Part shown: positions 4,419 through 35,024 of the stretch, piece after piece | Layout of the letters: each line of letters starts with the position of its first letter | Position numbering within the stretch: the first letter of the stretch is position 1 | From: Verrucomicrobiales bacterium | GTDB lineage: Bacteria; Verrucomicrobiota; Verrucomicrobiia; Verrucomicrobiales; Akkermansiaceae | Assembly: GCA_038237425.1 (NCBI GenBank) | Contig: JBBRYQ010000024.1 | Coordinates: 1,005 to 65,004, forward strand | Length of the DNA: 64,000 nt | Direction of reading: 5' to 3' | The notes under the pieces: model-generated | What the model saw: the letters and a program-made list of their open reading frames with translations, nothing else | Told to the model about the DNA's origin: nothing | The model's database searches: none | Program-made: the position numbers and the translations under genes

Positions 4419-4433
4419 ACTCACTACCTCACC

Positions 4434-7706: not shown

Positions 7707-7731
7707 AGCCCGTGTCATCAAATCTATCGTT

Positions 7732-9159
7732 ATGAATCAAATTCTCTTCAACGTGATCCTTGGCGGCGCGTGCGTCGTATCGGGAGATATGGCTTCGGCC
7801 GCGATCATTCCCTACGTCACCGCCGCGAACACGGAGTTGCGCATCACACCACAAGCTCCTCTCGTCTTCGTCGAAAAATCTCAGACTCTTGAGAGCGAAC
7901 CCGCAGTGTTTGTCGATGCTGACAAGAAATTTCAAACCCTCGTCGGGATTGGTGGGGCGTTGACTGACTCTGCGGCCGAGGTTTTCGATAAACTGCCTGC
8001 CGCCGCACAGGATGAGTTCATGCAGGCCTATTTTGATAGAGACAAAGGAATCGGCTATTCACTCGCCCGGACCAACATCGCGAGTTGTGATTTTTCGAGT
8101 GAATCCTATGCCTATGTGAAGGAGAATGATGCAGAACTAAAATCGTTTGATGTCTCGCATGACAAGGCGCACCGCATCCCGTTCATCAAGCGTGCCACAT
8201 TGAAAGCCGGAGGGGAGTTGAGTCTTTTCGCGAGCCCTTGGTCACCTCCCGGATGGATGAAGGACAATGGCTCGGTGCTCGAGGGGGGCAGCCTTAAACC
8301 GGAATTCCGGCAGGCGTGGGCGAATCATTTTGTATCATTTGTGAAGGCTTATGAGGCAGAAGGGGTGAAACTATGGGGATTGAGCGTTCAGAATGAACCC
8401 ATGGCCAAACAAAGATGGGAGTCTTGTGTTTTTACCGCCGAGCAGGAGCGGGATTTCATCGGCGACTACCTCGGCCCGACGCTGCATGAAGCAGGGCTTG
8501 GAGGGCTGAAGCTGATCGCATGGGATCACAACCGGGATCTGATCTATCAACGTGCCAGCACGATTCTGAATGATCCTAAGGCAGCAAAATATGTATGGGG
8601 AATCGGGTTTCACTGGTATGAAACGTGGACGGGAGGCGCAATGCAGTTCGATAATGTGCGCCGTGTCCATGAAGCCTATCCGGACACTCACCTTATTTTC
8701 ACCGAGGGCTGTGTGGAAAAGTTTGATGCAACTCGCATCAAGAATTGGAGTCTCGGAGAGAGATATGGGATGTCGATGATCAACGATTTTAATGCCGGCA
8801 CTGTCGGCTGGACTGATTGGAATATCCTTCTTGATGAAACCGGCGGCCCGAACCACGTTGGCAATTTGTGCTTCGCCCCTGTTCATGCCGATCTCACCAA
8901 TGGTCGCCTGATCTATACCAATTCATATTTCTACATCGGGCATTTTTCGAAATTCATCCGTCCTGGCGCGAGGAGAATTATCTGTGTTTCGAACCGCGAG
9001 CCACTGTTGACCACCGGGTTCGTTAATCCGGATGGTACGACTGTGGTGATCGTGATGAACACGGGAAGTAACACACTCGACTATCAGCTTTGCACGAACC
9101 AAAAGGCGGCACCGGTCGCTTGCCTGCCTCACTCGATTACCACCTTTGTTTTTCGCTGA
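7732..9159 (+). CDS. GH30 glycoside hydrolase (glucosylceramidase-like)
   Basis: Motifs FQTLVGIGGALTD, ASPWSPPGWMK, SVQNEP (acid/base), IFTEGC (nucleophile), WTDWNILLD. Confidence 0.88.
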   Translation: MNQILFNVILGGACVVSGDMASAAIIPYVTAANTELRITPQAPLVFVEKSQTLESEPAVFVDADKKFQTLVGIGGALTDSAAEVFDKLPAAAQDEFMQAYFDRDKGIGYSLARTNIASCDFSSESYAYVKENDAELKSFDVSHDKAHRIPFIKRATLKAGGELSLFASPWSPPGWMKDNGSVLEGGSLKPEFRQAWANHFVSFVKAYEAEGVKLWGLSVQNEPMAKQRWESCVFTAEQERDFIGDYLGPTLHEAGLGGLKLIAWDHNRDLIYQRASTILNDPKAAKYVWGIGFHWYETWTGGAMQFDNVRRVHEAYPDTHLIFTEGCVEKFDATRIKNWSLGERYGMSMINDFNAGTVGWTDWNILLDETGGPNHVGNLCFAPVHADLTNGRLIYTNSYFYIGHFSKFIRPGARRIICVSNREPLLTTGFVNPDGTTVVIVMNTGSNTLDYQLCTNQKAAPVACLPHSITTFVFR

Positions 9160-20797: not shown

Positions 20798-22552
20798 TTA
20801 CTCCGCGGGATACAACTGAAGCTCCGCCACGCCGGGGGAACCTTTATCGCATTCCATCGTTAGGCGGAATTTTTGCGCGGTGACTGGCGTGATGGATTCC
20901 TTCACTCCGTGGCCATTGGTCTTGCCTGCTGCTAGATTCTTCCAGGCCCCTTCCGCAAAAACTTCCAGCGTGAATTTCTGACTCATGCGTGGCCAGACAT
21001 CCGGTTCGTCCAGCCCGAACGCGCCGATCTTGGTGACCTGTTTAAGCTCCACTTCGAGCGATGCGGACTTAACGTCTTTCGGTGCGCGCCAGCGCTTTTC
21101 GCCGGTACCATCAATGGCGTTTGCGGCCTCGCTGCCGGGGATCTCGGTCGATGCAATGACTTTCGCGCCCACGGTTGGAAGTGGCGATGTGATGGGCTCG
21201 CCTTTGATTTTTAAGGCGATGACGGAATCCGATTTGTCCGGCGAAGCTGAGGGAACCTCGATGACGAGTTTCTCATTGGTGCGCAATACAGGAAGCTCTT
21301 TACCATCAGAGAGCAGCGTCGCGGATACGGCTTCGTTATTCAAAGGTATGGTCAGTTTTCCGTCATTTGGCCATTCAAATACATGGAGGTAAAGCGTGCC
21401 GCCCTTGCGCGTGGCGACTCCCCATGGCAGATAGGCAAACGGACTGCGGTTTGTGCCATAAATTGCTTCGCCGTTCACGCGTAGCCACTGGCCCACGTCG
21501 TGCAGGCGTTCGATGCACGCGGGCGGAAACTCACCTTCCGCAGTCGGGCCGACGTTGAGCAGGAAATTGCCGCCCTTCGCGCAGATATCCGCGAGCTTGC
21601 GGATGAGATCGGTAGAAGATTTCCAGTTTTGATCGTAGGCGTTGTAGCCCCAGTGACCGTTGAGCGTCATGCAGGTTTCCCAATCGCCGGGAAATCCCGT
21701 GACCGGCACAAATTGTTCCGGCGTGGCAGTGTCGCCGCCGAAGCCGCCGCCGAGTCGATTGTTCATGATCAGGCCAGGTCGCGTTTGTGTGAGTGCTGCG
21801 AATGGCGCGGCGCGTTGCGGTGTCATGTGCATCGGTGTGTCCCACCACAAAATATCTATCGGGTAGCGTGTGAGAATTTCTTTCACCTGCGGCACGGCGA
21901 CATTTTTCAAATACTCGTCGTAATTTCCCTTGTGCGCATCGTCCCAACCTTCGCCCTCCTGGAATCCGCTTTTTGCACCGCCGGGATTATTCCAGTCCTG
22001 CGATTGAGAATAGTAAAAACCAATCTTCAAGCCAGCGGCGTGCGCGTCACTCACCAGTGGTTCAAGTAAATCTTTTTTATAGGGTGTCGAGTCGGCGATG
22101 TTCCACTTGCTCGCGGCGGATGGATAGAGTGTGAATCCATCGTGATGCTTTGCGGTGATGACGATATATTTCATTCCCGCATCCTTCGCGGTCTGTACCC
22201 AGAGCGCGGGATTATATTTCACCGGATTGAACTGCGCGGCGAACTCATGATAGGTCGCGACGGGAATCTTCGCCGAGTTCATGATCCACTCTCCGTAACT
22301 GGTGTTGTCGCCAAACTTTCCGGCGGGCACGGCATAAACGCCCCAGTGGATGAAGAGTCCGAATTTCGCCTCGCGCCACCACGCCATGCGCGCGTCGCGC
22401 TGGGCGGGAGTTTCCTTGATCGCTTCGAGTTTCTCGCCGCCGCCCTCGACGGTGACGCCCTCGGCCGGCGCGGAAGTGGTGGGAGTTGCGGCGTGGGATT
22501 GCAGCAGGGTCACCGCGAAGATGAACGATGTGAGATAGATTTTGAATTTCAT
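20798..22552 (-). CDS. Secreted alpha-L-fucosidase (GH29) with C-terminal F5/8-type C (CBM32-like) domain
   Basis: ATG 22552 (MKFKIYL...); motifs FGLFIHWGVY, TAKHHDGF, LWWDT, WETCMTLN, GGNFLLNVGP. Confidence 0.92.
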   Translation of the reverse strand: MKFKIYLTSFIFAVTLLQSHAATPTTSAPAEGVTVEGGGEKLEAIKETPAQRDARMAWWREAKFGLFIHWGVYAVPAGKFGDNTSYGEWIMNSAKIPVATYHEFAAQFNPVKYNPALWVQTAKDAGMKYIVITAKHHDGFTLYPSAASKWNIADSTPYKKDLLEPLVSDAHAAGLKIGFYYSQSQDWNNPGGAKSGFQEGEGWDDAHKGNYDEYLKNVAVPQVKEILTRYPIDILWWDTPMHMTPQRAAPFAALTQTRPGLIMNNRLGGGFGGDTATPEQFVPVTGFPGDWETCMTLNGHWGYNAYDQNWKSSTDLIRKLADICAKGGNFLLNVGPTAEGEFPPACIERLHDVGQWLRVNGEAIYGTNRSPFAYLPWGVATRKGGTLYLHVFEWPNDGKLTIPLNNEAVSATLLSDGKELPVLRTNEKLVIEVPSASPDKSDSVIALKIKGEPITSPLPTVGAKVIASTEIPGSEAANAIDGTGEKRWRAPKDVKSASLEVELKQVTKIGAFGLDEPDVWPRMSQKFTLEVFAEGAWKNLAAGKTNGHGVKESITPVTAQKFRLTMECDKGSPGVAELQLYPAE

Positions 22553-22563
22553 TTTTTCCAAGT

Positions 22564-23982
22564 TTATTGTGTTAGGGGTGTGGCATTCGATGCCACTGCG
22601 ACTGCCGGAAATTTCATGACGTCTGAATCAAACTCCAACGCCACGACCGTCACCTCCGATTGCCGGTCAGGTCTGGCGACGGAAATTTCCAAGCTGCTTT
22701 CCGTTTGCCGCGCCTCCACTTTGCCACCGCCCAATAGATTTGCGCGAACCATTTTGGCAGCAAGATTCGGCAGCATCAGTGCGCCCGCTTCCGGCCATTT
22801 GAAGACGTGGACAAAGATTGTATTTCGCTTGCGGGTCGTGCCGCCGTATTCGCCGGGTTTGAACGGCCCGCTGCGTGTGCCGTAGATGCTCTCGCCGTTT
22901 TTCCTGAGCCATTCGCCCACTTTTAGAATGCAAGCTGACTGGTCGGCGGGGATGGTGCCAGTGGCGTCCGGCCCTACATCGAGCAGAAGATTTCCATCAC
23001 CGCTCGCGCAGCTTACGAGCATCCGCAGCGTTTCTGCGAACGGCTTGACCTTGCCATCGCTGCGATATGACCAACCTCCGTGCGGCGCATCAACGACGGT
23101 CATGCACGATTCCCAAAGCCGCGTGTCCTGATACTTGCCGAGCTTTTGCTCCGGTGTGTCGAAGTCGCCGCGAAACGGTTCTGGCTGGCGGTTGTAAGCT
23201 CCAAGTTCCGCCATCCGATTGTTCATCACGATCGCGGGTTGCAATTGCTTCACCAAGGCTGAGGTCTCGGCGATGCCCCAGAAGTTGGTGAGGTCTCCGC
23301 GCCCGTAACTGTCCCACCATAGCACGTCCACCGGGCCGTAGTTCGACAGCAATTCACGCACTTGGCCGTTCATATAGTCTCGATACATGGCGTTGTCGCC
23401 GATTCCGTAATCCGGATGATGCCAATCGCGCTGTGAGTAATAGATGCCAAAGCGCAAACCTTCCGCGTGACAGGCGTCGGCAAGTTCCTTCACGACATCG
23501 CGCTGGAAGGGCGTGTGCATGATAGAATAGTCAGTGAGCTTGGTATTCCACATGCAGAATCCACCGTGATGTTTAGCGGTGAAGACGAGATATTTCATTC
23601 CTGCGGCCTTCGCGAGTCGCACCCATTCTTTAGCGTCGAAATGGGTCGGGTTGAAGTTTCTGTAGAGATTGTCGTATGCCGGGTCTTCCACGTAGCCAGC
23701 GGGATCTTTGTATATGTCCAGTGGCTTCGTGGCCTTGCGTGACCAACTGATCTCGGTGCCGGCGATGCTCGACATGTCCCAGTGGATGAACATGCCGTAG
23801 CGTGCCTCGCGCCACCACGTCGTGCGGGCGTCGCTTTGTGCGGAAACCTTCTCCACGTTTTCAAGTTTCTCTCCGCCCGGTCCGCTGGCAGGTCCCGCGG
23901 TTGGGGCTTCGTGGAGCGCAGTGGCGGCATTAGTCTGAAAGAGTGTTAGTGCCAACAGCGCAACGATTTTTGTTGTGTTCAT
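22564..23982 (-). CDS. Secreted alpha-L-fucosidase (GH29), variant motif KHHGGF
   Basis: Signal peptide; motifs YGMFIHW, TAKHHGGF, LWWDS, WESCMT, GNLLLDVGP. Confidence 0.9.
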   Translation of the reverse strand: MNTTKIVALLALTLFQTNAATALHEAPTAGPASGPGGEKLENVEKVSAQSDARTTWWREARYGMFIHWDMSSIAGTEISWSRKATKPLDIYKDPAGYVEDPAYDNLYRNFNPTHFDAKEWVRLAKAAGMKYLVFTAKHHGGFCMWNTKLTDYSIMHTPFQRDVVKELADACHAEGLRFGIYYSQRDWHHPDYGIGDNAMYRDYMNGQVRELLSNYGPVDVLWWDSYGRGDLTNFWGIAETSALVKQLQPAIVMNNRMAELGAYNRQPEPFRGDFDTPEQKLGKYQDTRLWESCMTVVDAPHGGWSYRSDGKVKPFAETLRMLVSCASGDGNLLLDVGPDATGTIPADQSACILKVGEWLRKNGESIYGTRSGPFKPGEYGGTTRKRNTIFVHVFKWPEAGALMLPNLAAKMVRANLLGGGKVEARQTESSLEISVARPDRQSEVTVVALEFDSDVMKFPAVAVASNATPLTQ

Positions 23983-23991
23983 GATTCTTTT

Positions 23992-25065
23992 TTACGGCTC
24001 GTGCTGAGTTTCTTGATTGGTCTCGATGCGCTTTTTGAGACTCATCAGCGCCGCGATTTGCCACTCTTCCAATTTCCCGTCACGGTTCGGACCCACATCG
24101 AGCAATAAATTTCCTCCTGCGCGAATGACCGTGTCGTGATAAAGCTCAAACAATTTGTCGGTTGGTCGCGCCTTGTCCTCAGCCGTCCAGAACCAATCCT
24201 TGCCGATGACATCGCAGTATTCGTAGCCGAGATAATAATTTGTCCCGCGCCACGATTGCGTCGGGCTGAACTGGCCGGGAATCACGTCGCGCTCGCTGTT
24301 CAAAACATCCGTGGGCCATGATTCGGCTTTGGTGCTTTCGATGGTGAATGGTCCAGGAGTCTTCTTATCAAGGAAGCCACAGTTAAACAATACCACGCAG
24401 CCTGGATTTTCCCGGCGCAGTAGTTCATACAACTCCGTGCGCTGTGCCTCGCTCGCGGCGCGGGGAATGTCGAGCCAGTAGTAACGCACAGTGGGATAGT
24501 TCCGCGCAAGCTCTGTCAACTGAGCCTTCGCCAATCCGAAAAAATCATCGGGCAGCAGATACCGTCCCCACTGTTGTTTGTGTTCGACCGAGTTATTGCG
24601 AAAATCCAGAAGGCAATAATACAGCCCCGGCGTGATGTTATATTTTCCACAGGCGTCCACAAATGCTCGCACCACATCGTTCGTATTGCCGCTCGTGGCT
24701 ACGTCGTAATCAAACTCCTTGCCGCGGAATTGTATTTTGCTGTCCCACAAACAATGCCCTGCAACGTGCTTGGACGTGAGAACGGCGTAGTGCATCCCCG
24801 CGTCCTTCGCAACGCGGATCCACTGGTCCACATCAAGATTCTTGGGCGCGTAAGTGGCAGATGGCTGGTCGCCGGGGTCAAGTTCGTTGCCCGTGAACGT
24901 GCTCATGCCGAAATGCAGGAACATGCCGTAGCGCATCTTTTGCCATTCTCGCATCCGTGGTGTCTCGACCCCATCGGGAGATAGGTGGACAGCCGACTCG
25001 CTTCCGACGGCAGATGTCACCAAGCCTGCCACACACGCCACCGCTATTTGAATGAGTTGTTTCAT
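23992..25065 (-). CDS. Secreted GH29 alpha-L-fucosidase-like protein, variant motif KHVAGH
   Basis: The true start is probably ATG 25065 (MKQLIQIAVACVAGLVTSAVGS, a signal peptide). Motifs YGMFLHFGMSTF, TSKHVAGH, YWLDIP, GGNLLLDVGP. Confidence 0.82.
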   Translation of the reverse strand: MKQLIQIAVACVAGLVTSAVGSESAVHLSPDGVETPRMREWQKMRYGMFLHFGMSTFTGNELDPGDQPSATYAPKNLDVDQWIRVAKDAGMHYAVLTSKHVAGHCLWDSKIQFRGKEFDYDVATSGNTNDVVRAFVDACGKYNITPGLYYCLLDFRNNSVEHKQQWGRYLLPDDFFGLAKAQLTELARNYPTVRYYWLDIPRAASEAQRTELYELLRRENPGCVVLFNCGFLDKKTPGPFTIESTKAESWPTDVLNSERDVIPGQFSPTQSWRGTNYYLGYEYCDVIGKDWFWTAEDKARPTDKLFELYHDTVIRAGGNLLLDVGPNRDGKLEEWQIAALMSLKKRIETNQETQHEP

Positions 25066-25104
25066 TTTGTAGACGATGTTAGGTAATGTATGATACAAAT
25101 CTGC

Positions 25105-25257
25105 GATGTTCGAGTTTTGCGTCACCCGACCGTTGAGGATGGTGCTGAGTTGAAGATCATTGGGATTCGGAATCACGTCCGGCGTGACCCAATACGGGCC
25201 GACCGGGCTTAATCTATCGAAGGTTTTCTCGCGACACCGTTGGCCGCTGCCGCGCAT
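25105..25257 (-). pseudogene. Decayed internal fragment of a fumarylacetoacetate-hydrolase (FAH) family gene
   Basis: Translates GQRCREKTFDRLSPVGPYWVTPDVIPNPNDLQLSTILNGRVTQNSNIADL, which matches the FAH-family segment QWxRGKTFDTFxPxGPxxVTPDEIxxPxxLxxxTxxNGxxxQxxNTxDM. Both ends of the gene are absent. Confidence 0.75.
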
Positions 25258-25277
25258 GAGCGGCTAGGCGCGCGCTG

Positions 25278-25901
25278 TCACTTTGGCAGCAGTGCGAGCA
25301 GATCGTCATGCGGCCTCGCGATGACGTGGGCGGCGATCACCTTGCCCAATGACCCGACGGCTTGTTTCCCGGCGTCGATTGCGGCTGCGACGGCTGCGAC
25401 ATCGCCGCTGATAACGACGGTCACATAGGCGGCTCCGATTTTCTCCTTGCCGACGATTTTGACGTCTGCCGCTTTGAGCATGGCGTCGGTGGCTTCGAGG
25501 ATGGCGGTGAGGCCCTGGGTTTCGAGGATGCCGATGGCTTGTGGTTTCATATTCTTGGGAGCGTTGGGATTGGCGGGGTGATCGGTGGGGAGAAATTGGT
25601 CGCGTCCGCCATAGAGCGGATTGCTGGCGTTGGGAAAGTGGATCATCGGATCAAACCCATCGACTGGCCTTGGGATGGTGCCGGTGACGATGGACTCGAC
25701 GCCGAGTTTCGGGGCAAGAGATTCTGCGGCATCCAGCGCGGCACGGACTTGTGAGATATCGCCCGCCAAGCGGATGAGCACATTTTCATTGCCCGTGGCC
25801 TCGAATCCGAGGATGCGCACATCCGCCGAGTTCGCGGCTTCCTGCGCAAGCATTGCGGAGATGCTGAGGAAAGGAGCTTCGATGAAACCGAGTGACTGCA
25901 T
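25278..25901 (-). CDS. Bacterial microcompartment shell protein with two tandem BMC domains (BMC-T)
   Basis: The C-terminal domain is canonical (AIGILETQGLTAILEATDAMLKAADV...VISGDVAAVAAAIDAG...HVIARPH). The N-terminal domain is a divergent copy (SLGFIE...RLAGDISQVRAALDAA...GTIPRP). Confidence 0.9.
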   Translation of the reverse strand: MQSLGFIEAPFLSISAMLAQEAANSADVRILGFEATGNENVLIRLAGDISQVRAALDAAESLAPKLGVESIVTGTIPRPVDGFDPMIHFPNASNPLYGGRDQFLPTDHPANPNAPKNMKPQAIGILETQGLTAILEATDAMLKAADVKIVGKEKIGAAYVTVVISGDVAAVAAAIDAGKQAVGSLGKVIAAHVIARPHDDLLALLPK

Positions 25902-25907
25902 GGGATA

Positions 25908-26924
25908 CTAACGGTTTTGAGCGACTTCGAGATTTTTCATCACGGCCCGGACGATCGCATCCACATTCATGGGTGATGACGTTGTGCAATCTACGCGGCA
26001 TTCTCCAGCAGCCTCTTCGAACCCGCAACCGGCGAGCACGCATGCGAGTTTGGAGCGCATTTCGGCGATGAGTCCTTGTTCAGCGGGCGAGAGCGGGAAG
26101 CGCGCGTTGCCTGCTTTGAAACCACGGAGTTCGTATCCGGTGCGGAAGCCTTCAGGGAAATTTGGCGCGCCGACCATCAGCGAGAAAAGGTCGAGCAGTT
26201 CAAATTGGATTTGTTTCGCCTTCTCCCAGTTTCCGGCACGGGCGGCATGATAGAGGCTCATCACCACTTCCGGCACGACGCCGGCGCTGGAAAGTGTGCC
26301 GCCGTCCGCGCCCATGAAGAGACCGGTGCAGAGCAGTTCCTCCCAGCCGATGAGCACCGAGAAATCCGGGCGCTGGCGTTTGATGGTGTGGAGTGTCTGT
26401 TGGAAGCGGCCCATGTCCTTGGAGGTGTCCTTGGTGCCGACGATGCGCGGGCAATCCATGGCGAGGCGTTCAAGAACGGGTAGAGAAATTTCGTTCGCGA
26501 AGACCGGGATGTTATAAACCACGATATCGATCGGCGATTTGGCGGCCAGTTCGCGGAAATAGGCCTCGATGCTTTCCTGGGTGAGTTTGTAATAATACGG
26601 GCCGGTGATGGAAACCGCGCGGCAACCGAGGTCCGCGCAATACTTGCACATTTCTAGGACGAGCTCGATGTTCGCCTCGGCGGCACCGGCGAGGATGGGG
26701 CGGCCGTTTGCCTCCTCGCTGACGATGCGCACCACGGTACGGCGTTCCTCGTAGCTCAGGCGGATGAACTCGCCCATGCTGCCATTCGGATAGAATCCGG
26801 TCACGCCCTTGTCTCCCACCCAGCGGATGATGTGGCGGAGCTCGTCCTCATCGATGCGCCCCTTGGCGTCGTAAGGAACGATGTTGGGGACGAAAATACC
26901 GTTGATGGTGGACTGGGAAGCCAT
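25908..26924 (-). CDS. DHDPS/KDG-aldolase family class I aldolase with a C-terminal encapsulation-peptide-like helix; candidate 2-keto-3-deoxy-L-fuconate aldolase
   Basis: Motifs NGSMGEF (GxxGE), VVYNIP (Tyr) and GTKDTS (Schiff-base Lys); C-terminal extension ending NVDAIVRAVMKNL. Substrate is inferred from context only. Confidence 0.8.
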   Translation of the reverse strand: MASQSTINGIFVPNIVPYDAKGRIDEDELRHIIRWVGDKGVTGFYPNGSMGEFIRLSYEERRTVVRIVSEEANGRPILAGAAEANIELVLEMCKYCADLGCRAVSITGPYYYKLTQESIEAYFRELAAKSPIDIVVYNIPVFANEISLPVLERLAMDCPRIVGTKDTSKDMGRFQQTLHTIKRQRPDFSVLIGWEELLCTGLFMGADGGTLSSAGVVPEVVMSLYHAARAGNWEKAKQIQFELLDLFSLMVGAPNFPEGFRTGYELRGFKAGNARFPLSPAEQGLIAEMRSKLACVLAGCGFEEAAGECRVDCTTSSPMNVDAIVRAVMKNLEVAQNR

Positions 26925-26951
26925 GGAGTGGGATGATGAAAGTTCCGGAGA

Positions 26952-28172
26952 TCAGAGCAAGTCACAAGATGCGCCTGTTTCCTGGGGAGTGCGATACACG
27001 CCGCCTTCGACACGGCAAGGATGGACGAAGTGCTCGCGGAGGTGTGGGATGTGTTCGAGGAAGATGGCGGGCAGGTCGAGGCCGATGTGGTTGAAGAGCA
27101 CGAGATGCTGGTGGAGCTGGCCCATGTCGCCGACGTGCGGGACGACGGGGACGCCGAACTTTTTGCACATGATGCTGACTGCTAGAAACTCACTCACACC
27201 CGCGACGCGGACGGCATCGACCTGGATGAAGCCGGCGCATTCGACCTGGAGGTAGTTTTTGAAAATGATTCTGTTTGGAACGTGTTCGCCGAGTGCGAGC
27301 TTCACCGGCGCGATGGCATCCGCGAGGGTCTTGTGGCCGATGATGTCGTCCGGGTGGGTGGGCTCTTCGATCCAGAACGGGTTGACTTCCTTGAGTCGGG
27401 CGCAGATGTCGAGGGCTTGGGGAAGCGTCCATTGCTGGTTGGCATCCACCATGATGCGGGCATCCGGTCCGGCGACATCGCGGACGATACGGGCGCGGCG
27501 GAGGTCGCGTTCCGGGTCTTTCGAGCCGACCTTGAGTTTCATGGCGGTGAAGCCGGCGTCCATGGCGCGCTTGCAGTTTTCACGGACTTGTTCGTCGCTG
27601 TAGTTGAACCAACCGACGGAGGTGTCGTAACCGGGGTAGCCGGTTGTTAGGATCCCTTCACGGGAGGCGCGGGTGGCCGTGGGATTTGTTAGCAGCTCGA
27701 CGGCTTGCTCGTGGGTGAGCACGTCTTCGAGGTAGGAAAGATCGAGAGTGGCAGCGACTTGGGCGGGTGTGAGATCTAACAAGAGTTTCCACAATGGCAG
27801 GCCGCGGGTTTTCGCCCAGAGGTCCCAGCAGGCGTTGGTGACGGAAGCGAGTGCGAGCTGGACGACGCCCTTGTGCGGGCCGAGCCAGCGGAATTGTTGT
27901 TCATCGGCCATTTCCTTTTGGAGCGCGCCGAAGTCCGCCATGATTCCCTCGATGCAACGGCCTTGCAGACGTGCTGCATAAAATTCCGCAGCCTTGCAGA
28001 CGAGGTCGTTGCCCTCGCCAAGGGTGAATGCGAGGCCGGAGCCGGTGCGGCCTTTGTCGTCGGTGAGGAGAGTGACGGCGTAGGAATAAATCGGGTCCTT
28101 GTGGATGGCATCGGAGCCGTGGCCGGAGCCGATGGGGTAGCGGACGTCGCGTGTGGAGATGTGGGTGATCAT
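26952..28172 (-). CDS. fucD: L-fuconate dehydratase (enolase superfamily, mandelate-racemase subgroup)
   Basis: Start ATG 28172 (MITHISTRDVRYP...GSDAIHKDPIYSYAV), ATGA-coupled to the upstream GH29. Motifs GPHKGVVQLA, YDTSVGW, KLKVG, MVDANQ, WIEEP, GEH and PHVG are characteristic of FucD/ENOSF1-like enzymes. Confidence 0.82.
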   Translation of the reverse strand: MITHISTRDVRYPIGSGHGSDAIHKDPIYSYAVTLLTDDKGRTGSGLAFTLGEGNDLVCKAAEFYAARLQGRCIEGIMADFGALQKEMADEQQFRWLGPHKGVVQLALASVTNACWDLWAKTRGLPLWKLLLDLTPAQVAATLDLSYLEDVLTHEQAVELLTNPTATRASREGILTTGYPGYDTSVGWFNYSDEQVRENCKRAMDAGFTAMKLKVGSKDPERDLRRARIVRDVAGPDARIMVDANQQWTLPQALDICARLKEVNPFWIEEPTHPDDIIGHKTLADAIAPVKLALGEHVPNRIIFKNYLQVECAGFIQVDAVRVAGVSEFLAVSIMCKKFGVPVVPHVGDMGQLHQHLVLFNHIGLDLPAIFLEHIPHLREHFVHPCRVEGGVYRTPQETGASCDLL

Positions 28173-29827
28173 GGTTTCTTGAGAGAAATTTCGGAAATTG
28201 TCGGGCCGTCGCTGGCGTCGAGAATATTCAGGCGGATGGCGCTGGTGGTGACGGGATCGAAGGAAGCCTTGAAATGCGCGCCGAGGGCATCGCCACTGTG
28301 GAAGGTGGTCCAGGTGGAACCGTCCTGTTTTTGGAGTTCGAATTTTTTCACGCGGCTGGAGTGGCCGGAATAGGCTTCCTCGATGTGGATGCCGTTGATG
28401 GTGGTCGGCTGGGCGAGGTCGATTTGCAGCCAGGATTGTTGGGTGCCTTCCGGAGTGGCCCAACGGGTTTCCACGTCACCATCGAGGACCATATCCGCGC
28501 TGTATTGTGGGTCGTTCTGATAGATTACGGAGGCGGATGCCTTCGCACCGGGGATGCTCGAGCGGGTGGCTGACTTGAGCGGCGCGATGGCCATGGCGTC
28601 TCCAGCGATGGTGAGCTCGACGATGGTGTCGATCGGATCCCACGAGTTGGCGGGGATTTCAAATGAGAGGGAGCCATCGGTAGTGGTGGTTTCGATAGAC
28701 GGACCGTTGAGCAGTTTCGCGGACTTGATGGCGACGGGCAGGGCGGGGACGCTGATAGAGCCATCCATTTTGCTCAGGAGATGAAGATAGATCTTGTCGC
28801 CCATGCGGGTGCTGACCATGGCGGTGGAGGGTTTCCACGGACCACCGCGGGTGCCATACACGGCTTCGCCGTTTTTCGCGAGCCACGCTCCCATTTCCTT
28901 GAGTCGTTCGATCTGGCGTCCTTCGATCTCGCCGGTGGGCTCGGGGCCGACATTGAAGAGTAGGTTGCCATCGCCGCCGTTGGTGCGGATCAGGGTTTGG
29001 ATGCATTCTTCGAGCGACTTCATGGTGTCGTTCGGTTTCCATGCCCATTGATTGCAGATGGTCATGCAGGTTTCCCACGGGCGGTCGATCTGGAAGCCGC
29101 CGATGCGTTGTTCCGGCGTGTCGTAGTCGCCCTTGTGACCAGTGCGGTTGTTGATGACGATGTCCGGCTGGATCGCGCGGGCCATGTTGATCACGCCGGC
29201 ACCGCGCGTGGCGTCGAATTTCTGCGGCACATCGAACCAGAGGCTGAATAGCGGACCGTAGTTGGTTAGAAGCTCGGAAACCTGGGCCTTGAGGTATTTC
29301 GTGTAGGCATCGAGGTCGGATTTTTCACGGACGGTTTTGCCGCCCGGGCTGGTGAGCGGAAAATCCGGGTGGTGCCAATCGCAGGTGGAATAATAGGTGC
29401 CGAAGGCGATGCCGCCTTTTTTACAGGCTGCGGCGAGTTCCTTGACCACGTCCCGCTTGAAGGGCGTGTTCATGATGTTGTAGTCGGTCTGCTTGGTGTC
29501 CCAGAGGCAAAAGCCGTCGTGATGCTTGGTGGTGAGAACGATGTATTTCATGCCAGCCGCCTTGGCGACGGCGACCCATTCGTCGGCGTTGAACTTGCTG
29601 GGATTGAATTGTTTATAAAGGTTGTCGTATTCCTCGATGGGGACTTGGTTGCCGCGGGACCAGCCGATTTCCGTGCCCTTCAAACTAACAGGACCCCAGT
29701 GGATGAACATGCCGAAGCGGGCGTCCTGCCAGTTCTTGACTGCGGCGGGTGCGGCGGGAATGACGTCCTGTGCAAATAGCGGGGTACTGCACAAAAGGGA
29801 CGCGAGAACGAAGTGGGATAGTTTCAT
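28169..29827 (-). CDS. Secreted alpha-L-fucosidase (GH29) with C-terminal F5/8-type C domain
   Basis: ATG 29827 (MKLSHFVLASLLCSTPLFA); motifs FGMFIHWG, TTKHHDGF, LWFDVP, WETCMT, GNLLFNVGP. Confidence 0.92.
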   Translation of the reverse strand: MKLSHFVLASLLCSTPLFAQDVIPAAPAAVKNWQDARFGMFIHWGPVSLKGTEIGWSRGNQVPIEEYDNLYKQFNPSKFNADEWVAVAKAAGMKYIVLTTKHHDGFCLWDTKQTDYNIMNTPFKRDVVKELAAACKKGGIAFGTYYSTCDWHHPDFPLTSPGGKTVREKSDLDAYTKYLKAQVSELLTNYGPLFSLWFDVPQKFDATRGAGVINMARAIQPDIVINNRTGHKGDYDTPEQRIGGFQIDRPWETCMTICNQWAWKPNDTMKSLEECIQTLIRTNGGDGNLLFNVGPEPTGEIEGRQIERLKEMGAWLAKNGEAVYGTRGGPWKPSTAMVSTRMGDKIYLHLLSKMDGSISVPALPVAIKSAKLLNGPSIETTTTDGSLSFEIPANSWDPIDTIVELTIAGDAMAIAPLKSATRSSIPGAKASASVIYQNDPQYSADMVLDGDVETRWATPEGTQQSWLQIDLAQPTTINGIHIEEAYSGHSSRVKKFELQKQDGSTWTTFHSGDALGAHFKASFDPVTTSAIRLNILDASDGPTISEISLKKP

Positions 29828-29846
29828 ATAGGATTCAGTTAGACGT

Positions 29847-30608
29847 TTAGCGGCGGTAGCCGATTTCCGCGCCACCGGAGACGTGCATGATGTGGCCGGT
29901 GACGAAGCGGGCCTTGGATGAGATGAGGAAAACGCAGGCATCGGCGATGACATCGCCCTCCGGGCAATAGCCGAGCGGGTGGATGTCATCGAGATATTGT
30001 GAGATGCCGACGGGGTCCGGTTGCTCGGACGCCCAGGTGCGGAGCATGGGGGTCCAGGTGCCGGCGGGGCAGACGGCGTTCACGCGGATGCCGTCCTTGG
30101 CGTAGTCGAGCGCCATCGATTTGGTGAGGGTGTTCATGCCGCCCTTGGTGGCGGTGTAAGCGGCGTGGATTTCCTGACCGATGACACCGACGAGCGAGGA
30201 GGTGTTGAGGATGCAGCCTTTGGTTTCACGGAGTGCTTGAATGCCGTGGCGGGTGGTGTGGAGCACGCTTTTTAGATTGATATGAAAAAGGGAGTCCCAT
30301 TCATCATCGCTGGTTTCGTGGAGCGGTTTGCTGGGGGTGGCGATGCCGGCGTTGTTGTGGATGGCGGTGATTTTTCCGTAGCGGGCGAGCACCCGGTCGA
30401 TGGCGGATTTGACATCGGCGTCTTTGGAAACATCACAGGCAAAACCGATATGATCGGGGCCGAGGTCGGCGGCGGCTTGGGCGGAGAGATCGCCATTGCG
30501 GGCGACCAGCGCGACCGTGGCTCCCTCAGCAACATAGGCCTTGGCGCAATCGAGGCCGATGCCGGTGGAGCCGCCGGTGAGGAAGATAACTTGGTCTTGG
30601 AGGAGCAT
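29847..30608 (-). CDS. SDR-family oxidoreductase, candidate L-fucose dehydrogenase
   Basis: Motifs TGGSTGIG, NNAGI, YTATKGG (YxxxK) and RVNAVCP. Function is inferred from its position between the mutarotase and the fuconate dehydratase. Confidence 0.8.
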   Translation of the reverse strand: MLLQDQVIFLTGGSTGIGLDCAKAYVAEGATVALVARNGDLSAQAAADLGPDHIGFACDVSKDADVKSAIDRVLARYGKITAIHNNAGIATPSKPLHETSDDEWDSLFHINLKSVLHTTRHGIQALRETKGCILNTSSLVGVIGQEIHAAYTATKGGMNTLTKSMALDYAKDGIRVNAVCPAGTWTPMLRTWASEQPDPVGISQYLDDIHPLGYCPEGDVIADACVFLISSKARFVTGHIMHVSGGAEIGYRR

Positions 30609-30614
30609 GGGAGA

Positions 30615-30721
30615 GGATGGAGGATGAAGGATCGGAGATTGTGGATTGGGGATAGAAGATAGAATATGGAAGATAGTGGATCCAGGCGCTCTTTATCTAC
30701 AATCCACGATCTACGATCCAA
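30615..30721. repeat. Heptanucleotide tandem repeat with an inverted second arm (imperfect long hairpin)
   Basis: Ten heptamers, mostly RGATNNN (GGATGGA GGATGAA GGATCGG AGATTGT GGATTGG GGATAGA AGATAGA ATATGGA AGATAGT GGATCCA), then four in the opposite orientation (TATCTAC AATCCAC GATCTAC GATCCAA). Confidence 0.75.
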
Positions 30722-30723
30722 CT

Positions 30724-31125
30724 TCATTCAAGATGATAGAGCTCCTTGGTATCGGACCAGACCTTTCCAGCCTTGAGGGCGTCGGGAAGTGGGGACTGGC
30801 AGGGGTCGGTTTCCTTCCACCAACGCTTGGTTTCCGGGTCTTCGCCCATTTTTTTCATGTCGGCGGCGAAGTCCTTGCCGGTGTATTCGAGGTAGGCGAA
30901 GAGATAGGTTTTTCCGGCGATTTCGCGCTCGTAGATCGAGAAATTGCGGATGTTGCAGGCTTTTAAATTGGCGTTAACGGATGGCCAGGGATTAGCGTGG
31001 AGCTTGCGGTAATATTCGGCTTTCTGTGGCTTGAGGCCGGTGACCCAGGCGTGGCGCTGGACTTGGGTGGGCGCACAGCTTGCGGCGAGGGCTGCTAGAA
31101 CGAGGCAGAGGATGAAATTTTTCAT
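30724..31125 (-). CDS. RhaM-family (L-rhamnose/L-fucose) mutarotase with a predicted lipoprotein signal peptide
   Basis: LKPQKAEYYRKLHANPWPSV...NIRNFSIY...LFAYLEY...RWW is the RhaM signature. The N-terminus is MKNFILCLVLAALAASC. Confidence 0.85.
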   Translation of the reverse strand: MKNFILCLVLAALAASCAPTQVQRHAWVTGLKPQKAEYYRKLHANPWPSVNANLKACNIRNFSIYEREIAGKTYLFAYLEYTGKDFAADMKKMGEDPETKRWWKETDPCQSPLPDALKAGKVWSDTKELYHLE

Positions 31126-31143
31126 GAGCAGGTTTTTTCGGAA

Positions 31144-33075
31144 TCAATGGAATACGATGTAGAGCACAGTCATTGAGCCGATGACGATGCCGGCGAGCAC
31201 CTTGTAGTTGAGGATGCCTGACCAACCGGGGGCTTTCAGGGCGTCGAGCGGATGAGGCCAGTAGAGCGCCTGCACGTCTTCACCGGCGAGTTTCGGTTGG
31301 AGCTTGGTGAAGGTGATCTGGAGCACGAGGCAGGCGACGAACATATAGAATGCCATCATCATGAACGGGGTAGTTACGAAGAACGCGGGCACCCAGGCGA
31401 AGGTGGTGGGGAAGCCTTCGTTGAGGGCTTTGAGCGCGTAAATGCTCACCCCGAGCACGGAGCCGAGCCACATGGTCCACTTCGCACCGCGGGCCGAGGC
31501 GGCAGGCCAAAATACGCCTAGCAGGAAGACGCAGGTGATGGGCGGTGCCATGTGAGCGATGATCTCGTTGAGCGCGTTGAAGATGCTGGCCTTGCGGTCT
31601 AGCAGCGGGACGAGCGCGATGCCGAAGGCGATAGATGACAGCGTGGCGACGCGGCCGATGAAGACGAGCTGCTTGTCACTGGTGGCGGGGCGGAAACGTT
31701 TGACGATGTCATAACTGACCATGGTGGCAATCGAGTTCGAGGCGCTGGATAGATTTCCCATCAGCGCGGCCATCAGCGCGGCGGCGAGAAGACCGAGCAC
31801 ACCGACGGGCAGCAGCTTTTTGATCATGACGGCATACACTTCCTTCGATTTGTAGGGGCGGATTCCTGCGGAAGCGGGGATGGTTTCTCCGGCGTCGGTC
31901 GTCACGATTTTCACCGGTACGTCGGGGCCGATGATGAGGGAAGAGTCCTTGCTAGTGGGCTTGATGGCGAGCTGGGAGAGATCGATGGTTTCGCCTTCCT
32001 TGAGGCGGATCGGTTCGATTTTCGTGCCACCAACGTCACCGGTGACGGCGATGATTTTCTCCTTGCCACCATCTGGCAAGGTGACGGTCTGTATTAAGCG
32101 AAGTTGGGTGACTCCTTCGAGGTTTCCTTGCTTGACGGCGGTGTAAAGCATCAGGCCGGGGACGATGAAGATGAAGACGGGGAGGATCTTGATGAGACCA
32201 CAGAAGATCGAGCCGACGCGGGCGTCGTTCTCGGTCTTCGCGCCGAGCACGCGCTGGACGATGGTTTGGTCCGCGCACCAATACCAGATGCCGAGCACGG
32301 GGTAGCCTAGCAGAATGGAATACCAGGGCATGCCGCTGTCGTCGCCGTGAGGGCGGAGCATCCTCATGAGCTTGCCATCGGTGATGCCTTGGGCGGCGGC
32401 GTTGGCGGTGTCGAGCGTGGCGGTCATGCCCTCCCAGCCGCCTGTTTTATGCCAGGCGAACCAGGTGATAACGAAGGCACCTAGCAGAAGCACGATGGTC
32501 TGGATCGTCTCGGTGATGGCCACAGCAGCGAGTCCGCCGACCACGGTGTAGATGCCGGTGAGGGCGCACATGAGAAAGATACAGGTCCATTTCTCGATGC
32601 CGAAAATGTCGTGTAGGATGAGCCAGCCGGTGGCGAGCGGGAAGGCGATGTGGAAGATGATCGCGGCGACGATGGAAACGACGGCGAGCAGATCGCGGCA
32701 TTCGCGGCAGTAACGTTTTTCTAGGAAATCCGGCAGGGTGGCGACCTTGGATTTCAGATAGAATGGCGCGAAGAAGAAGCCGAGCAGGATCAGGGTGAAG
32801 GCGGCCATCCACTCGAAGTTACCGTTGAGCAGGCCGGTATCGTAGCCGGACTGGGCGAGGGAGACGAGGTGGACGCAGGAGATGTTGGTGGCGAAGAGCG
32901 CGAGGCCGATGACCGGCCATTTCAGGGTGTGCGCGGCCATGAAGTAATCGCCAGCGACGGACTCACCCTGTTGCTGGCCTTTTTTCTTGGCGTTCATGCC
33001 GGCCCAACAACCGAGACCTACGACTCCGGCGAGGTAAATGATGACGATGGTCCAATCGAGGATACTAATTTGCAT
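31144..33075 (-). CDS. Sodium:solute symporter (SSS family), candidate L-fucose importer
   Basis: Start ATG 33075 (MQISILDWTIVIIYL); motifs GDYFMAAH, LFATNIS, WYWCADQTIVQRVLGA, AALMAALM; multiple TM helices. Confidence 0.9.
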   Translation of the reverse strand: MQISILDWTIVIIYLAGVVGLGCWAGMNAKKKGQQQGESVAGDYFMAAHTLKWPVIGLALFATNISCVHLVSLAQSGYDTGLLNGNFEWMAAFTLILLGFFFAPFYLKSKVATLPDFLEKRYCRECRDLLAVVSIVAAIIFHIAFPLATGWLILHDIFGIEKWTCIFLMCALTGIYTVVGGLAAVAITETIQTIVLLLGAFVITWFAWHKTGGWEGMTATLDTANAAAQGITDGKLMRMLRPHGDDSGMPWYSILLGYPVLGIWYWCADQTIVQRVLGAKTENDARVGSIFCGLIKILPVFIFIVPGLMLYTAVKQGNLEGVTQLRLIQTVTLPDGGKEKIIAVTGDVGGTKIEPIRLKEGETIDLSQLAIKPTSKDSSLIIGPDVPVKIVTTDAGETIPASAGIRPYKSKEVYAVMIKKLLPVGVLGLLAAALMAALMGNLSSASNSIATMVSYDIVKRFRPATSDKQLVFIGRVATLSSIAFGIALVPLLDRKASIFNALNEIIAHMAPPITCVFLLGVFWPAASARGAKWTMWLGSVLGVSIYALKALNEGFPTTFAWVPAFFVTTPFMMMAFYMFVACLVLQITFTKLQPKLAGEDVQALYWPHPLDALKAPGWSGILNYKVLAGIVIGSMTVLYIVFH

Positions 33076-33149
33076 GGGTTGTGTTGTGATCGGTTCGTTT
33101 GAGGAGAACCTTACGCCGACGATGGGGAAATGTTGCGACCCGGTCTTGC

Positions 33150-33172
33150 AATATCCTTCGGCGAAGGATATT
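33150..33172. promoter_or_regulatory. Perfect 11-bp inverted repeat in the divergent SSS/AraC intergenic region; candidate operator or hairpin
   Basis: AATATCCTTCG-G-CGAAGGATATT, ending 9 nt before the AraC ATG. Confidence 0.5.
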
Positions 33173-33181
33173 ACACATTCC

Positions 33182-34219
33182 ATGAAGACCGCATTGCCAT
33201 CTCCGATCTATCAGAGTGGTGTGGATCTCTTTGAAATTGACGATTGTGGGCCTCAATTCAAGGCGGTCCGTGACGGAAAGATCGAATTGCACGCGCTTTC
33301 GAAAGGGCACTATCCGGGAAAACGAATGAATTCAAACATTCTTCCGGGTTTGACGAACATCGGATTCTGGAATTGCCGCGGCTCCCAGGATTGGGGCTTG
33401 GACGCCCACCGGAACGAGGGATTGGAGATCGTTTATCTCGAAACCGGCGGAATGGGCTTCGAGGTGGACGGACGGGCTCATGCATTGCAGGCGGGGAATC
33501 TAACGGTCACCCGGCCATGGCAGCTTCACAAGCTGGGAGATCCTCATATCGGTCGCGGACGGTTGTCGTGGTTGATCTTGGATGTCGGGGTGAGGCGGCC
33601 GAATCAGGAGTGGACCTGGCCTTCTTGGGTGGTTTTGTCGCCCAAGGATTTGGCGGAGTTGACGCGGAAACTGCGGCATGGAGAGCAATCCGTGTGGCTG
33701 GCGAATCCGCGGATGCGGGAGGTGTTCCGGGATCTCGGCGATTGCGTGGTGCGCTGGAACGAACCCCGCGTGGGCTCGCGGCTGGCAGTTGCGGTGAATC
33801 GACTGTTAGTGGAGCTGCTCGACGTGCTCGCCGAGCAGCAGCTCGTGGAGTCCCCGTCATTGGTGACGCGTCGGCGCACGGTGGAGCTTTTTCTCAACGA
33901 TCTGGTAGAGAACCCGGCGAGCTGCGCGGAGCCATGGACACTCGAAGGAATGGCGGCGCAGTGTGGCATGGGGATCACGGCGATGGCGAAGTATTGCAGG
34001 GAGTTGGTAAATATCGGTCCCGTGGCCTTCCTGAACCAGTGCCGGCTGGACCATGCGGCGAGGGGGCTGAGGGAAAAGCCGCGCGTCACCATCACTGAAA
34101 TCGCCATGAGTGTGGGATTCAATTCCAGCCAATACTTTGCAACGTTGTTTCGGAAACGCCACAAGCTGACTCCGATGCACTATCGAGCCCGGTCTCAGGA
34201 GCTCACTTCTGCGCGTTAG
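33182..34219 (+). CDS. AraC-family transcriptional regulator, divergent from the fucose block
   Basis: ATG 33182; cupin-like AHRNEGLEIVYL; double HTH with ITEIAMSVGFNSSQYFATLFRK. Confidence 0.92.
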   Translation: MKTALPSPIYQSGVDLFEIDDCGPQFKAVRDGKIELHALSKGHYPGKRMNSNILPGLTNIGFWNCRGSQDWGLDAHRNEGLEIVYLETGGMGFEVDGRAHALQAGNLTVTRPWQLHKLGDPHIGRGRLSWLILDVGVRRPNQEWTWPSWVVLSPKDLAELTRKLRHGEQSVWLANPRMREVFRDLGDCVVRWNEPRVGSRLAVAVNRLLVELLDVLAEQQLVESPSLVTRRRTVELFLNDLVENPASCAEPWTLEGMAAQCGMGITAMAKYCRELVNIGPVAFLNQCRLDHAARGLREKPRVTITEIAMSVGFNSSQYFATLFRKRHKLTPMHYRARSQELTSAR

Positions 34220-34235
34220 CAAACCGAGTGTGTAT

Positions 34236-35024
34236 TTATTTCCGCTGATAGATCCGGACGTGATCGACTTCCATAAAGGTGCCGTCGATGGCATCGGTGA
34301 TTTTTCCGCCCCAACTGATGATGGCAAGGCTTAGCCAAACGGGAGACGGGCTGTGGCAGAAGGTGTTTTTCTCACGGCGGATTTCCTTTCCGTTGAAATA
34401 GAAAACGAGTTCTTTCTCCGTCCATTCGAGGCCATAGGTTTGGAAATCGCGGGCGAAGTCCGAGCGGGGATAGGTGAATTTTTTGGACGAGGTGGGATGC
34501 GTCTTTTTCCCACTCACGATTGTCGTGTCCGTGTGGTTGTGGATGTTGGTATTGATCTCGTTTGGGAAATGCCCTTCGTTGATGTCGATCTCGAAGGTTT
34601 TCTTTCCGGCGGGCGGTTTGTCGGTGGTCATCAGCCAAAAGGAATTGTTCGTTCCAGTAGCGGCGGCGTAGCGATAGCGGCACTCGAAGTAGCCGTATTG
34701 GAATTTTTCCTTGGTCCAGATACTTCCGGAGGTCCAGTCGTTGCCGCCGCGCTTTTACTTCTTGTTGAGGAGCTTGAGCGTGCCGTTAGAGACGGCCGCG
34801 TTTTCGCGCCAGCGGCTGCTGAGAATGTGCGTGCTGCCGGAGTTCTGAGAAATCCAATGCGCATCGAGTTTTTGATCCGGGTAGTCGAATTCGTCGCTCC
34901 AGGTGAGGTTCCATTTTGATGGACCTCCGGGCAGCAAAGAGGGAGCTTCAGGCCCGGCGGCGGATAGAATGGTGCTGGCGAGCAATGCAGGGAGGATCGC
35001 TAGAGTGTGGATGCCGAATGTCAT
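34236..35024 (-). pseudogene. Secreted GH16 gene interrupted by one in-frame TAA at 34755-34757
   Basis: The two ORF-track pieces share a frame: ...LKLLNKK*KRGGNDWTSGSIWTKEKFQYGYFECRYRY...SFWLM...EIDINEGH. The 41 codons between them encode the conserved GH16 YGYFE segment. Confidence 0.85.

Follow-up and report, generated by a model that had tools for sequence, protein, structure and literature searches.

A shell gene in a putative oxidative fucose operon

Can L-fucose that is degraded by an oxidative, non-phosphorylating route be channelled into a bacterial microcompartment (BMC)? The question is raised by a 64,000-nt stretch of DNA from a freshwater-type Verrucomicrobium, hereafter the window, whose genes were called by Pfam and NCBIfam profile scans. 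Seven genes follow one another on the minus strand between 33075 and 25278: a sodium:solute symporter (SSS), a RhaM-family mutarotase, a short-chain dehydrogenase/reductase (SDR), a GH29 α-L-fucosidase, an L-fuconate dehydratase (FucD), a DHDPS-family aldolase and a tandem-domain BMC shell gene (BMC-T). A microcompartment for L-fucose and L-rhamnose in Planctomycetes and Verrucomicrobia (PVM) was reportedly described by Erbilgin in 2014, and the non-phosphorylating fucose route, below called route 1, is said to occur in bifidobacteria. The PVM BMCs are taken to mark specialists for fucose and rhamnose, which degrade fucoidan and other recalcitrant algal or plant glycans, and to be fed only via isomerase, kinase and class II aldolase (PMC8857213, PMC8217296). 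Papers on verrucomicrobial and planctomycetal fucose BMCs draw this phosphorylative route only (PMC8857213, PMC11685898, PMC13174399); one of the three names the oxidative route of Xanthomonas as a compartment-free alternative. Route 1, with a DHDPS/NAL-type 2-keto-3-deoxy-L-fuconate (L-KDF) aldolase that forms pyruvate and L-lactaldehyde, is established biochemistry (PMC11199699). Its enzymes are FucM, FucA, FucB, FucC and FucH, the L-KDF aldolase, as named in the part of that paper which summarises Watanabe 2020. An earlier sequence-only reading of the locus had regarded the oxidative route as described without a compartment, and in the searchable full-text literature we found no paper linking it to a BMC. 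Nor did the searchable literature yield a case of a class I (Schiff-base) aldolase as BMC cargo.

The comparative analysis suggests that the window probably holds a satellite locus of the PVM BMC, fused onto a route 1 operon, whose class I aldolase would be delivered into the shell and release lactaldehyde inside. The seven genes, opposite an AraC gene, had been listed in the sequence-only reading, and the profile scans recovered each of them on the minus strand at roughly the coordinates given there. Spacers of 18 nt (SSS to mutarotase), 115 nt (mutarotase to SDR), 19 nt (SDR to GH29), -4 nt (GH29 to FucD), 27 nt (FucD to aldolase) and 6 nt (aldolase to BMC-T) separate them, and the run therefore looks like a single operon.

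The aldolase and its C-terminal extension

The aldolase gene (25908..26924, minus strand; PF00701, 176 bits) encodes a class I protein of the DHDPS/NAL family with 338 aa, presumed to be the 2-keto-3-deoxy-L-fuconate aldolase. All 37 aligned homologues have K165, the lysine of the Schiff base, and Y137, the catalytic tyrosine. Closest among the solved structures are the KDG/KDGal aldolases 4UXD and YagE (2V8Z), followed by NAL and DHDPS. The Foldseek matches span only about 294 residues, and the solved DHDPS, NAL and KDG aldolases align up to about residue 294 and have no tail; the window protein is about 45 residues longer than the solved family members. AlphaFold2 predicted it with a mean pLDDT of 89.5, giving a confident TIM barrel up to residue 299, values below 50 at residues 313-318 and then a helix at 321-337. 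The tail, encoded at 25914..26000 on the minus strand, consists of a variable linker (residues 309-320) and an amphipathic helix (residues 321-337, VDAIVRAVMKNLEVAQN), and the C-terminus reads VDAIVRAVMKNLEVA.

Column conservation was analysed in 35 tail-bearing orthologues of 57-95% identity. In the linker (residues 310-318 plus inserted columns) conservation fell to 14-40%, with insertions, deletions and variable length, and in the helix the positions 321, 324, 325, 328, 329 and 332 were hydrophobic in 89-100% of the orthologues, with V325 invariant. The hydrophobic residues are thus spaced i/i+3/i+4/i+7/i+8/i+11. As far as alignment and model tell, this is the layout of an encapsulation peptide (EP), a flexible variable linker followed by a terminal amphipathic helix of about 15-20 residues, and the sequence comparison supports the view that the tail has all hallmarks of one. 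The proposal of an EP-like tail made from the single sequence thereby gained a conserved helix, a variable linker and a predicted transition from disorder to helix. The 120 closest aldolase clusters at 90% identity (at least 72% identity) are nearly all of tail length, with 331-350 aa. Planctomycete homologues at 43% identity have 311-312 aa and possess neither the helix motif nor an adjacent BMC-T gene. In public records the close homologues bear generic DHDPS names, and some public names read 2-dehydro-3-deoxy-D-pentonate aldolase. Three cysteines just before the linker, C295, C300 and C309 (LACVLAGCGFEEAAGEC), were conserved in 89-100% of the tail-bearing orthologues; they might form a metal site, a disulfide or a redox switch.

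A core microcompartment locus on another contig

A shell needs more than the window offers: it contains one tandem PF00936 gene and no PF03319 gene. All other shell genes were found on contig C16 (C numbers denote contigs of the same genome, L numbers related loci). There, at about 39.9-47.3 kb, a DeoR gene is followed by PduL, BMC-H, BMC-H, AckA, BMC-H, BMC-P, aldehyde dehydrogenase (AldDH), BMC-P, BMC-P and a class II aldolase, with three PF00936 and three PF03319 matches for the shell. Judged by its domains this is the canonical PVM arrangement, with a BMC-P triplet, AldDH (PF00171), PduL (PF06130), acetate kinase and class II aldolase (PF00596), and the gene order was identical in 32 long related loci. 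The window BMC-T is the only tandem BMC gene of the genome, and none lies in or near the C16 locus. A tblastn match that appeared tandem in core loci (C16:41420-42008, and in many relatives) turned out to be a read-through of two neighbouring BMC-H genes and no fusion. Since the complete main BMC locus sits on another contig, the window locus falls under the definition of a satellite. This had been predicted from the window, with the search for a core locus elsewhere set beforehand as a check, and the prediction was confirmed. A minimal compartment built from the window locus by itself was rejected, as neither BMC-H nor BMC-P is encoded there.

The core cargo bears peptides as well. AldDH starts with LDPETLRSVVESVVSRL followed by a (PA)n linker, PduL starts with RAVVEHLVREQVYSRL, and the class II aldolase ends in AEKLVQMLTEQILAAVK. 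On sequence comparison these peptides are of the same design as the tail of the window aldolase.

The window holds no FucI, FucK or class II aldolase. This absence, noted in the sequence-only reading, stood for the window and did not extend to the genome. FucP and FucI lie with a divergent AraC gene on C15 (FucI at C15:13577-15331, 976.7 bits, above the cut-off), and the class II aldolase is part of the C16 locus. Of the FGGY kinases tblastn gave only AraB; phmmer then revealed a rhamnulokinase-like (RhaB-like) kinase at C11:48255-49733, whose best match of 429.7 bits was below the cut-off. Since FucP-FucI, this kinase and the class II aldolase are encoded, the oxidative operon would be a second, parallel entry and not a substitute. 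A 430-aa protein with two tandem class II aldolase domains is encoded at C34:20736-22028, unlinked to the BMC locus.

Conservation of the aldolase and BMC-T pair

The neighbourhood was surveyed from both genes. Anchoring on the aldolase gave 55 loci from species-level genomes, and in about 34 of the 45 tail-bearing loci BMC-T followed immediately downstream. An independent scan from a BMC-T alignment gave at least 508 stretches, from more than 500 species genomes, and neighbourhoods were read for the best 80 loci, which span Akkermansiaceae/Luteolibacter, Opitutales, Chthoniobacterales, subdivision 3/Limisphaerales and Kiritimatiellia. In 71 of these 80 the gene directly upstream, with the same orientation, encoded an aldolase homologue, and in 65 the alignment extended to the tail. 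The adjacency is conserved far beyond chance.

The flanks are less constant. At least 15 relatives have the aldolase right after FucD, or after FucD and a lactonase, in fucosidase-rich operons. A second context comprises RraA-like, UxaA-type dehydratase, SDR, MFS transporter and lactonase genes, a third GFO, SBP-like, family III CoA-transferase, RhaT and lactonase genes. Other copies stand with further enolase-family dehydratases or free, one of them after ftsQAZ. The conserved unit is therefore the portable two-gene module of aldolase and BMC-T, and the link to fucD is one use of it, because the flanks change and the pair stays. Of the conserved fucD-aldolase-BMC-T neighbourhood that the sequence-only reading had asked for, the pair was thus recovered, and fucD belongs to only one of at least three contexts. 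In L031/L032 (about 3000-8500) the order is IclR, GFO/IDH/MocA oxidoreductase, SBP-like gene, family III CoA-transferase, RhaT and lactonase, then the aldolase.

The variety of contexts bears on the substrate. The module could be encapsulated and cleave 2-keto-3-deoxy-L-rhamnonate (KDR), a keto-deoxy-pentonate or -hexonate, or several such acids, the FucD link being recent and incidental. Such a role would suit the modules beside RhaT, GFO and CoA-transferase genes, beside UxaA-type and other enolase-family dehydratases, or free-standing after ftsQAZ. It would also suit the two aldolase clades (73-95% and 55-61% identity), the promiscuity of the KDG/KDGal aldolases 4UXD and YagE as closest solved relatives, and the pentonate aldolase names in public records. 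We nevertheless consider a substrate not derived from fucose quite improbable. The aldolase follows FucD, or FucD and lactonase, in the window as in the at least 15 relatives with fucosidase-rich operons, and lactaldehyde, the presumed substrate of the PVM core, arises only from cleavage of a 6-deoxy-hexonate. Promiscuity towards both KDF and KDR is compatible with delivery of a fucose-cleaving aldolase into the shell.

Co-occurrence with the core was estimated from a scan for the PVM AldDH, with the best 80 of 109 matches compared by assembly prefix; the counts are lower bounds that come from incomplete metagenome-assembled genomes (MAGs). Among these matches the PVM AldDH occurred in at least 20 of the 26 family-level genomes with the module, and at least 20 of the best 80 AldDH genomes showed the aldolase. 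The module looks like an accessory that most PVM-bearing genomes do without and that rarely, if at all, occurs apart from them. Some module contigs are labelled Hydrogenedentota, Bifidobacteriaceae/Bifidobacterium or Dongiaceae in MAG records (L047, L193, L196, L209, L211, L216 and L045/L219). L046 (Opitutales) and L047 (Hydrogenedentota) share the gene order and have matching identity values, and the odd labels are probably errors of binning or labelling.

The predicted fucose pathway enzymes

The dehydratase (26952..28172, minus strand) gave full-length matches of 349-378 bits to the FucD of X. campestris (1YEY, 2HXT) and to human ENOSF1 (4A35), covering residues 99-501 of the long open reading frame 26952-28463. 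The start was set to the ATG at 28172, the sole in-frame start codon nearby, which overlaps the GH29 stop as ATGA. By homology this gene encodes the L-fuconate dehydratase of route 1, an enolase-superfamily member. The SDR (29847..30608, minus strand; PF13561 and PF00106) has HSD17B14 as best solved relative (153 bits), which is the mammalian L-fucose dehydrogenase (PMC13406643), and is a likely L-fucose 1-dehydrogenase. Import is attributed to the SSS (31144..33075, minus strand; PF00474, 222.9 bits; TIGR00813, 289 bits, above the cut-off), a presumed L-fucose importer, whose reading frame opens at 33183 and whose likely start methionine is at 33075. The secreted GH29 α-L-fucosidase (28169..29827, minus strand; PF01120, 293.6 bits) has a C-terminal F5/8 type C domain (PF00754, 69.8 bits); its start was set to the ATG at 29827, right after which the signal peptide follows. 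The RhaM-family mutarotase (30724..31125, minus strand; PF05336, 88.8 bits) begins with MKNFILCLVLAALAASC, a lipoprotein-type signal. Owing to this signal, the conversion of anomers may occur outside the cytoplasm, beside the secreted GH29 enzyme and before import by the SSS.

Several observations weigh against a fucose module that loads a shell. The SDR scored 156.8 bits with the NCBIfam model FucosDh, below its cut-off of 300 bits, and several other SDR models scored higher; SDR and aldolase were under every NCBIfam equivalog cut-off, and for this reason their substrates are predicted only. In the outline of the oxidative route given by the sequence-only reading (dehydrogenase, lactonase, FucD), the candidates for the first and last steps have a fucose dehydrogenase and fuconate dehydratases as nearest solved relatives. 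The middle step was missing: the window has no gene for an L-fucono-1,5-lactonase of the Amidohydro_2 type. Many relatives carry an Amidohydro_2 lactonase gene directly upstream of the aldolase, and the single homologue of this lactonase in the genome is 31% identical and stands in a different gene context (Amidohydro_2, C4:84474-85301). In five loci (L058-L062) no BMC-T gene adjoins the tail-bearing aldolase. Of the best 80 BMC-T loci, nine had no aldolase directly upstream as far as found, and in three of the 80 the contig end was too close to decide; an unrelated, Pfam-less protein of 809 aa takes the place of the aldolase in L203, L204 and L227. The mean hydrophobic moment of the tails was 0.64 as compared to 0.50 for shuffled tails, and in the median 15% of the shuffles reached the observed value. 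Because this single-tail signal is weak, the argument for the tail is built on column conservation. The gene of the 809-aa protein (L227:2556-4982 in the case of L227) has those of an enolase-family dehydratase, an SDR, a CoA transferase and a thiolase as neighbours; its product could be a different cargo on the same shell tile.

Part of these points would fit a correct pathway with an aldolase that stays in the cytosol. The tail would then serve oligomerisation, stability or regulation, the BMC-T would be an ordinary distal part of the PVM shell in the manner of CcmK3/K4, and lactaldehyde would diffuse into the compartment or be handled by cytosolic enzymes. The weak amphipathicity statistics of single sequences and the tail-bearing aldolases that lack a BMC-T neighbour agree with this, the conserved C295, C300 and C309 hint at another role of the C-terminus, and in the accessible text of the 2021 BMC catalog T_pvm proteins are no more than shell proteins of PVM satellites (Sutter 2021, PMC8217296). 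A cytosolic aldolase is nevertheless unlikely. The two genes remain neighbours in at least three operon contexts and at identities as low as about 55%, and unless aldolase and BMC-T are functionally linked this is difficult to account for. The tail resembles the three core cargo peptides in its order of linker and helix and in the way its hydrophobic residues are spaced, and an aldolase that released lactaldehyde into the cytosol would run counter to what the PVM compartment is accepted to be for (PMC8857213).

A further explanation starts from a gene remnant. Directly after BMC-T lies a fragment of a FAH-family (FucG-type) hydrolase gene (25070..25287, minus strand; PF01557 profile positions 91-171, 42.6 bits) with one internal TAG. 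It covers about 60 codons, is bounded by the BMC-T stop on one side and by the signal peptide of the following GH29 gene on the other, and was 29% identical over this length to the intact FAH gene of the genome at C12:27224-28177. In the 55 related loci no intact FAH gene was found nearby. The fragment is probably a relic of the hydrolase of the other branch of the pathway (route 3). Together with the absence of a lactonase gene, which L022, L057 and many other loci have between FucD and aldolase, and with the intact phosphorylative genes elsewhere in the genome, this relic could mean that the operon is decaying: the module would be non-functional, the oxidative copy would be in the course of being dismantled, and fucose would be used via FucI. 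Such decay is very improbable. All seven frames are intact and match their families over the full length, and their products share 80-95% identity with the proteins of relatives; start/stop overlaps and spacers of 6-27 nt are preserved, and the lactonase-less order FucD-aldolase-BMC-T recurs in L024, L033, L036 and L038. As FAH belongs to route 3, its loss fits a commitment to the aldolase branch.

The BMC-T shell protein

BMC-T (25278..25901, minus strand; PF00936 in two stretches, 120.5 bits) is a BMC-T(s) protein of 207 aa, tandem, non-permuted and free of cysteine. AlphaFold2 predicted two non-permuted beta-alpha-beta-beta-alpha-beta domains at residues 3-76 and 122-194, with a linker of 35 residues in between at low confidence. 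The best PDB match was an engineered tandem fusion of BMC-H, 6NER. Domain 2 and a linker motif, PNxxNPLYGGRDxLLPTD (residues about 90-108), are strongly conserved, domain 1 varies more freely; judging from the model, the linker with NPLYGGRD may take up an ordered structure only once the trimer forms or a partner is bound. Matches to PduT structures were weak and restricted to the second domain. A PduT-type protein, in which a pore cysteine ligates an Fe-S cluster and PduS is the usual partner, was rejected, because BMC-T has no cysteine. Both domains best matched the same core shell protein, BMCH2 (36% for domain 1, 54% for domain 2), so that an origin by simple fusion of BMCH1 and BMCH2 was not supported.

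Length, tandem non-permuted fold and satellite position agree with the T_pvm and Ts_mud entries of the 2021 BMC catalog, a clade of BMC-T(s) proteins of about 200-210 aa that is listed there among PVM satellites (Sutter 2021, PMC8217296). Whether catalogues already contain the arrangement had been asked in the sequence-only reading, and the answer is divided: shell proteins of the T_pvm type are listed as PVM satellites, and in the accessible parts of the catalog the PF00701 aldolase is not. The accessible table of BMC-associated enzyme families has no PF00701 entry, and the PVM text available is silent on this family (PMC8217296). The sole mention of a PF00701 aldolase in the accessible catalog text is made in passing, for MUF2 loci of Gemmatimonadetes (Sutter 2021, Supplementary Data 2, PMC8217296).

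Comparison with known systems and proposed pathway

Three known systems and route 1 itself can be set beside the window. The main locus of the genome is like the described PVM BMC (Axen 2014, PMC4207490; Sutter 2021, PMC8217296) in its BMC-P triplet, AldDH, PduL, acetate kinase, DeoR and EP-bearing class II aldolase, and the aldehyde to be contained is L-lactaldehyde in both cases. The signature enzyme described is a class II aldolase (PF00596) acting on phosphorylated ketoses, whereas the bearer of the targeting tail in the window is a class I aldolase (PF00701) with a non-phosphorylated keto-acid as predicted substrate. With route 1 the window shares the enzyme families, namely mutarotase, SDR as putative dehydrogenase, enolase-type dehydratase and DHDPS/NAL-type aldolase, in the same predicted order of chemistry. 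It differs in that the known examples in the literature searched have no BMC link, targeting tail or shell gene, in the absence of a lactonase (FucB) from the window, and in the signal peptide of its mutarotase. The satellite EUT modules (EutABC with the BMC-T EutL), proposed in the accessible catalog text to let an existing HO/SPU shell take a further substrate (Sutter 2021, PMC8217296), likewise pair an EP-bearing signature enzyme with a dedicated BMC-T at a distal locus; they differ in enzyme family, shell class (permuted EutL type instead of BMC-T(s)), substrate and host phylum. The MUF2 loci, as far as the accessible catalog text describes them, have a PF00701 aldolase near BMC shell genes and an AldDH closest to the PVM type, but the EP is assigned to a separate cysteine-rich protein that shares the N-terminal domain of the aldolase, and no fucose operon is attached.

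For the satellite locus fused onto a route 1 operon, the following sequence of reactions is proposed. Exported GH29 enzymes would liberate L-fucose, which the lipoprotein-type mutarotase and the SSS transporter would handle and import. The HSD17B14-like SDR would oxidise fucose to the lactone, which may open spontaneously or with the help of an enzyme encoded elsewhere, and FucD would convert the product to 2-keto-3-deoxy-L-fuconate. The C-terminal amphipathic helix would carry the aldolase into the shell, where the keto-acid would be cleaved to pyruvate and L-lactaldehyde. Core AldDH, PduL and acetate kinase would then turn lactaldehyde via lactyl-CoA and lactyl phosphate into lactate and ATP, the aldehyde being kept out of the cytosol. 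The co-inherited BMC-T would add a shell tile suited to this cargo; we infer that it may serve as a passage for the keto-acid and pyruvate, or as a docking partner. A wider idea, to which we give slightly less than an even chance, is that the class I aldolase constitutes a second PVM signature enzyme, part of a portable two-gene plug-in that brings its own BMC-T, with the conserved NPLYGGRD linker, as gate or docking site, so that the permeability of the shell is retuned module by module. Whatever sugar-acid operon it comes to stand next to, such a plug-in would allow non-phosphorylated 2-keto-3-deoxy acids to be split within the shell.

If the proposed delivery of the route 1 aldolase into the shell holds, the encapsulated class I aldolase adds an ATP-free, NAD(P)H-yielding entry to the PVM compartment, and the energetics as well as the marker-gene sets for metagenomic surveys change. 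A class I (Schiff-base) aldolase would serve as BMC cargo, and the module would be a natural case in which cargo and shell tile are passed on together, useful for engineering shells towards new substrates. These prospects, derived from comparative genomics, are of interest to specialists in microcompartments and glycan degradation.

Regulator, downstream genes and related operons

The AraC-family regulator (33038..34219, plus strand; PF12833, 63 bits, PF00165 and weak cupin/AraC_binding matches) is divergent from the operon, with its true start likely at about 33182; its position is kept in the relatives L022, L026, L038 and L057. A scan of 22000-34500 for consensus promoters and terminators gave fewer sites than shuffled sequences and was uninformative. 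Downstream of the FAH relic three more GH29 genes follow on the minus strand (span 20798..25065) at 23992-25065, 22564-23982 and 20798-22561, with PF01120 scores of 118, 273 and 297 bits. GH16, GH2, GH30 and BNR/sortilin-repeat genes are numerous in the wider window. The fucose operons of some relatives contain a URO-D-like gene (methyltransferase/decarboxylase fold) that is absent from the window; it was found at L038:6144-7418 and also in L034, L036 and L022, between SDR and GH29/FucD in L034, L036 and L038 and upstream of the SSS in L022. Its product might act on methylated deoxy-sugars.

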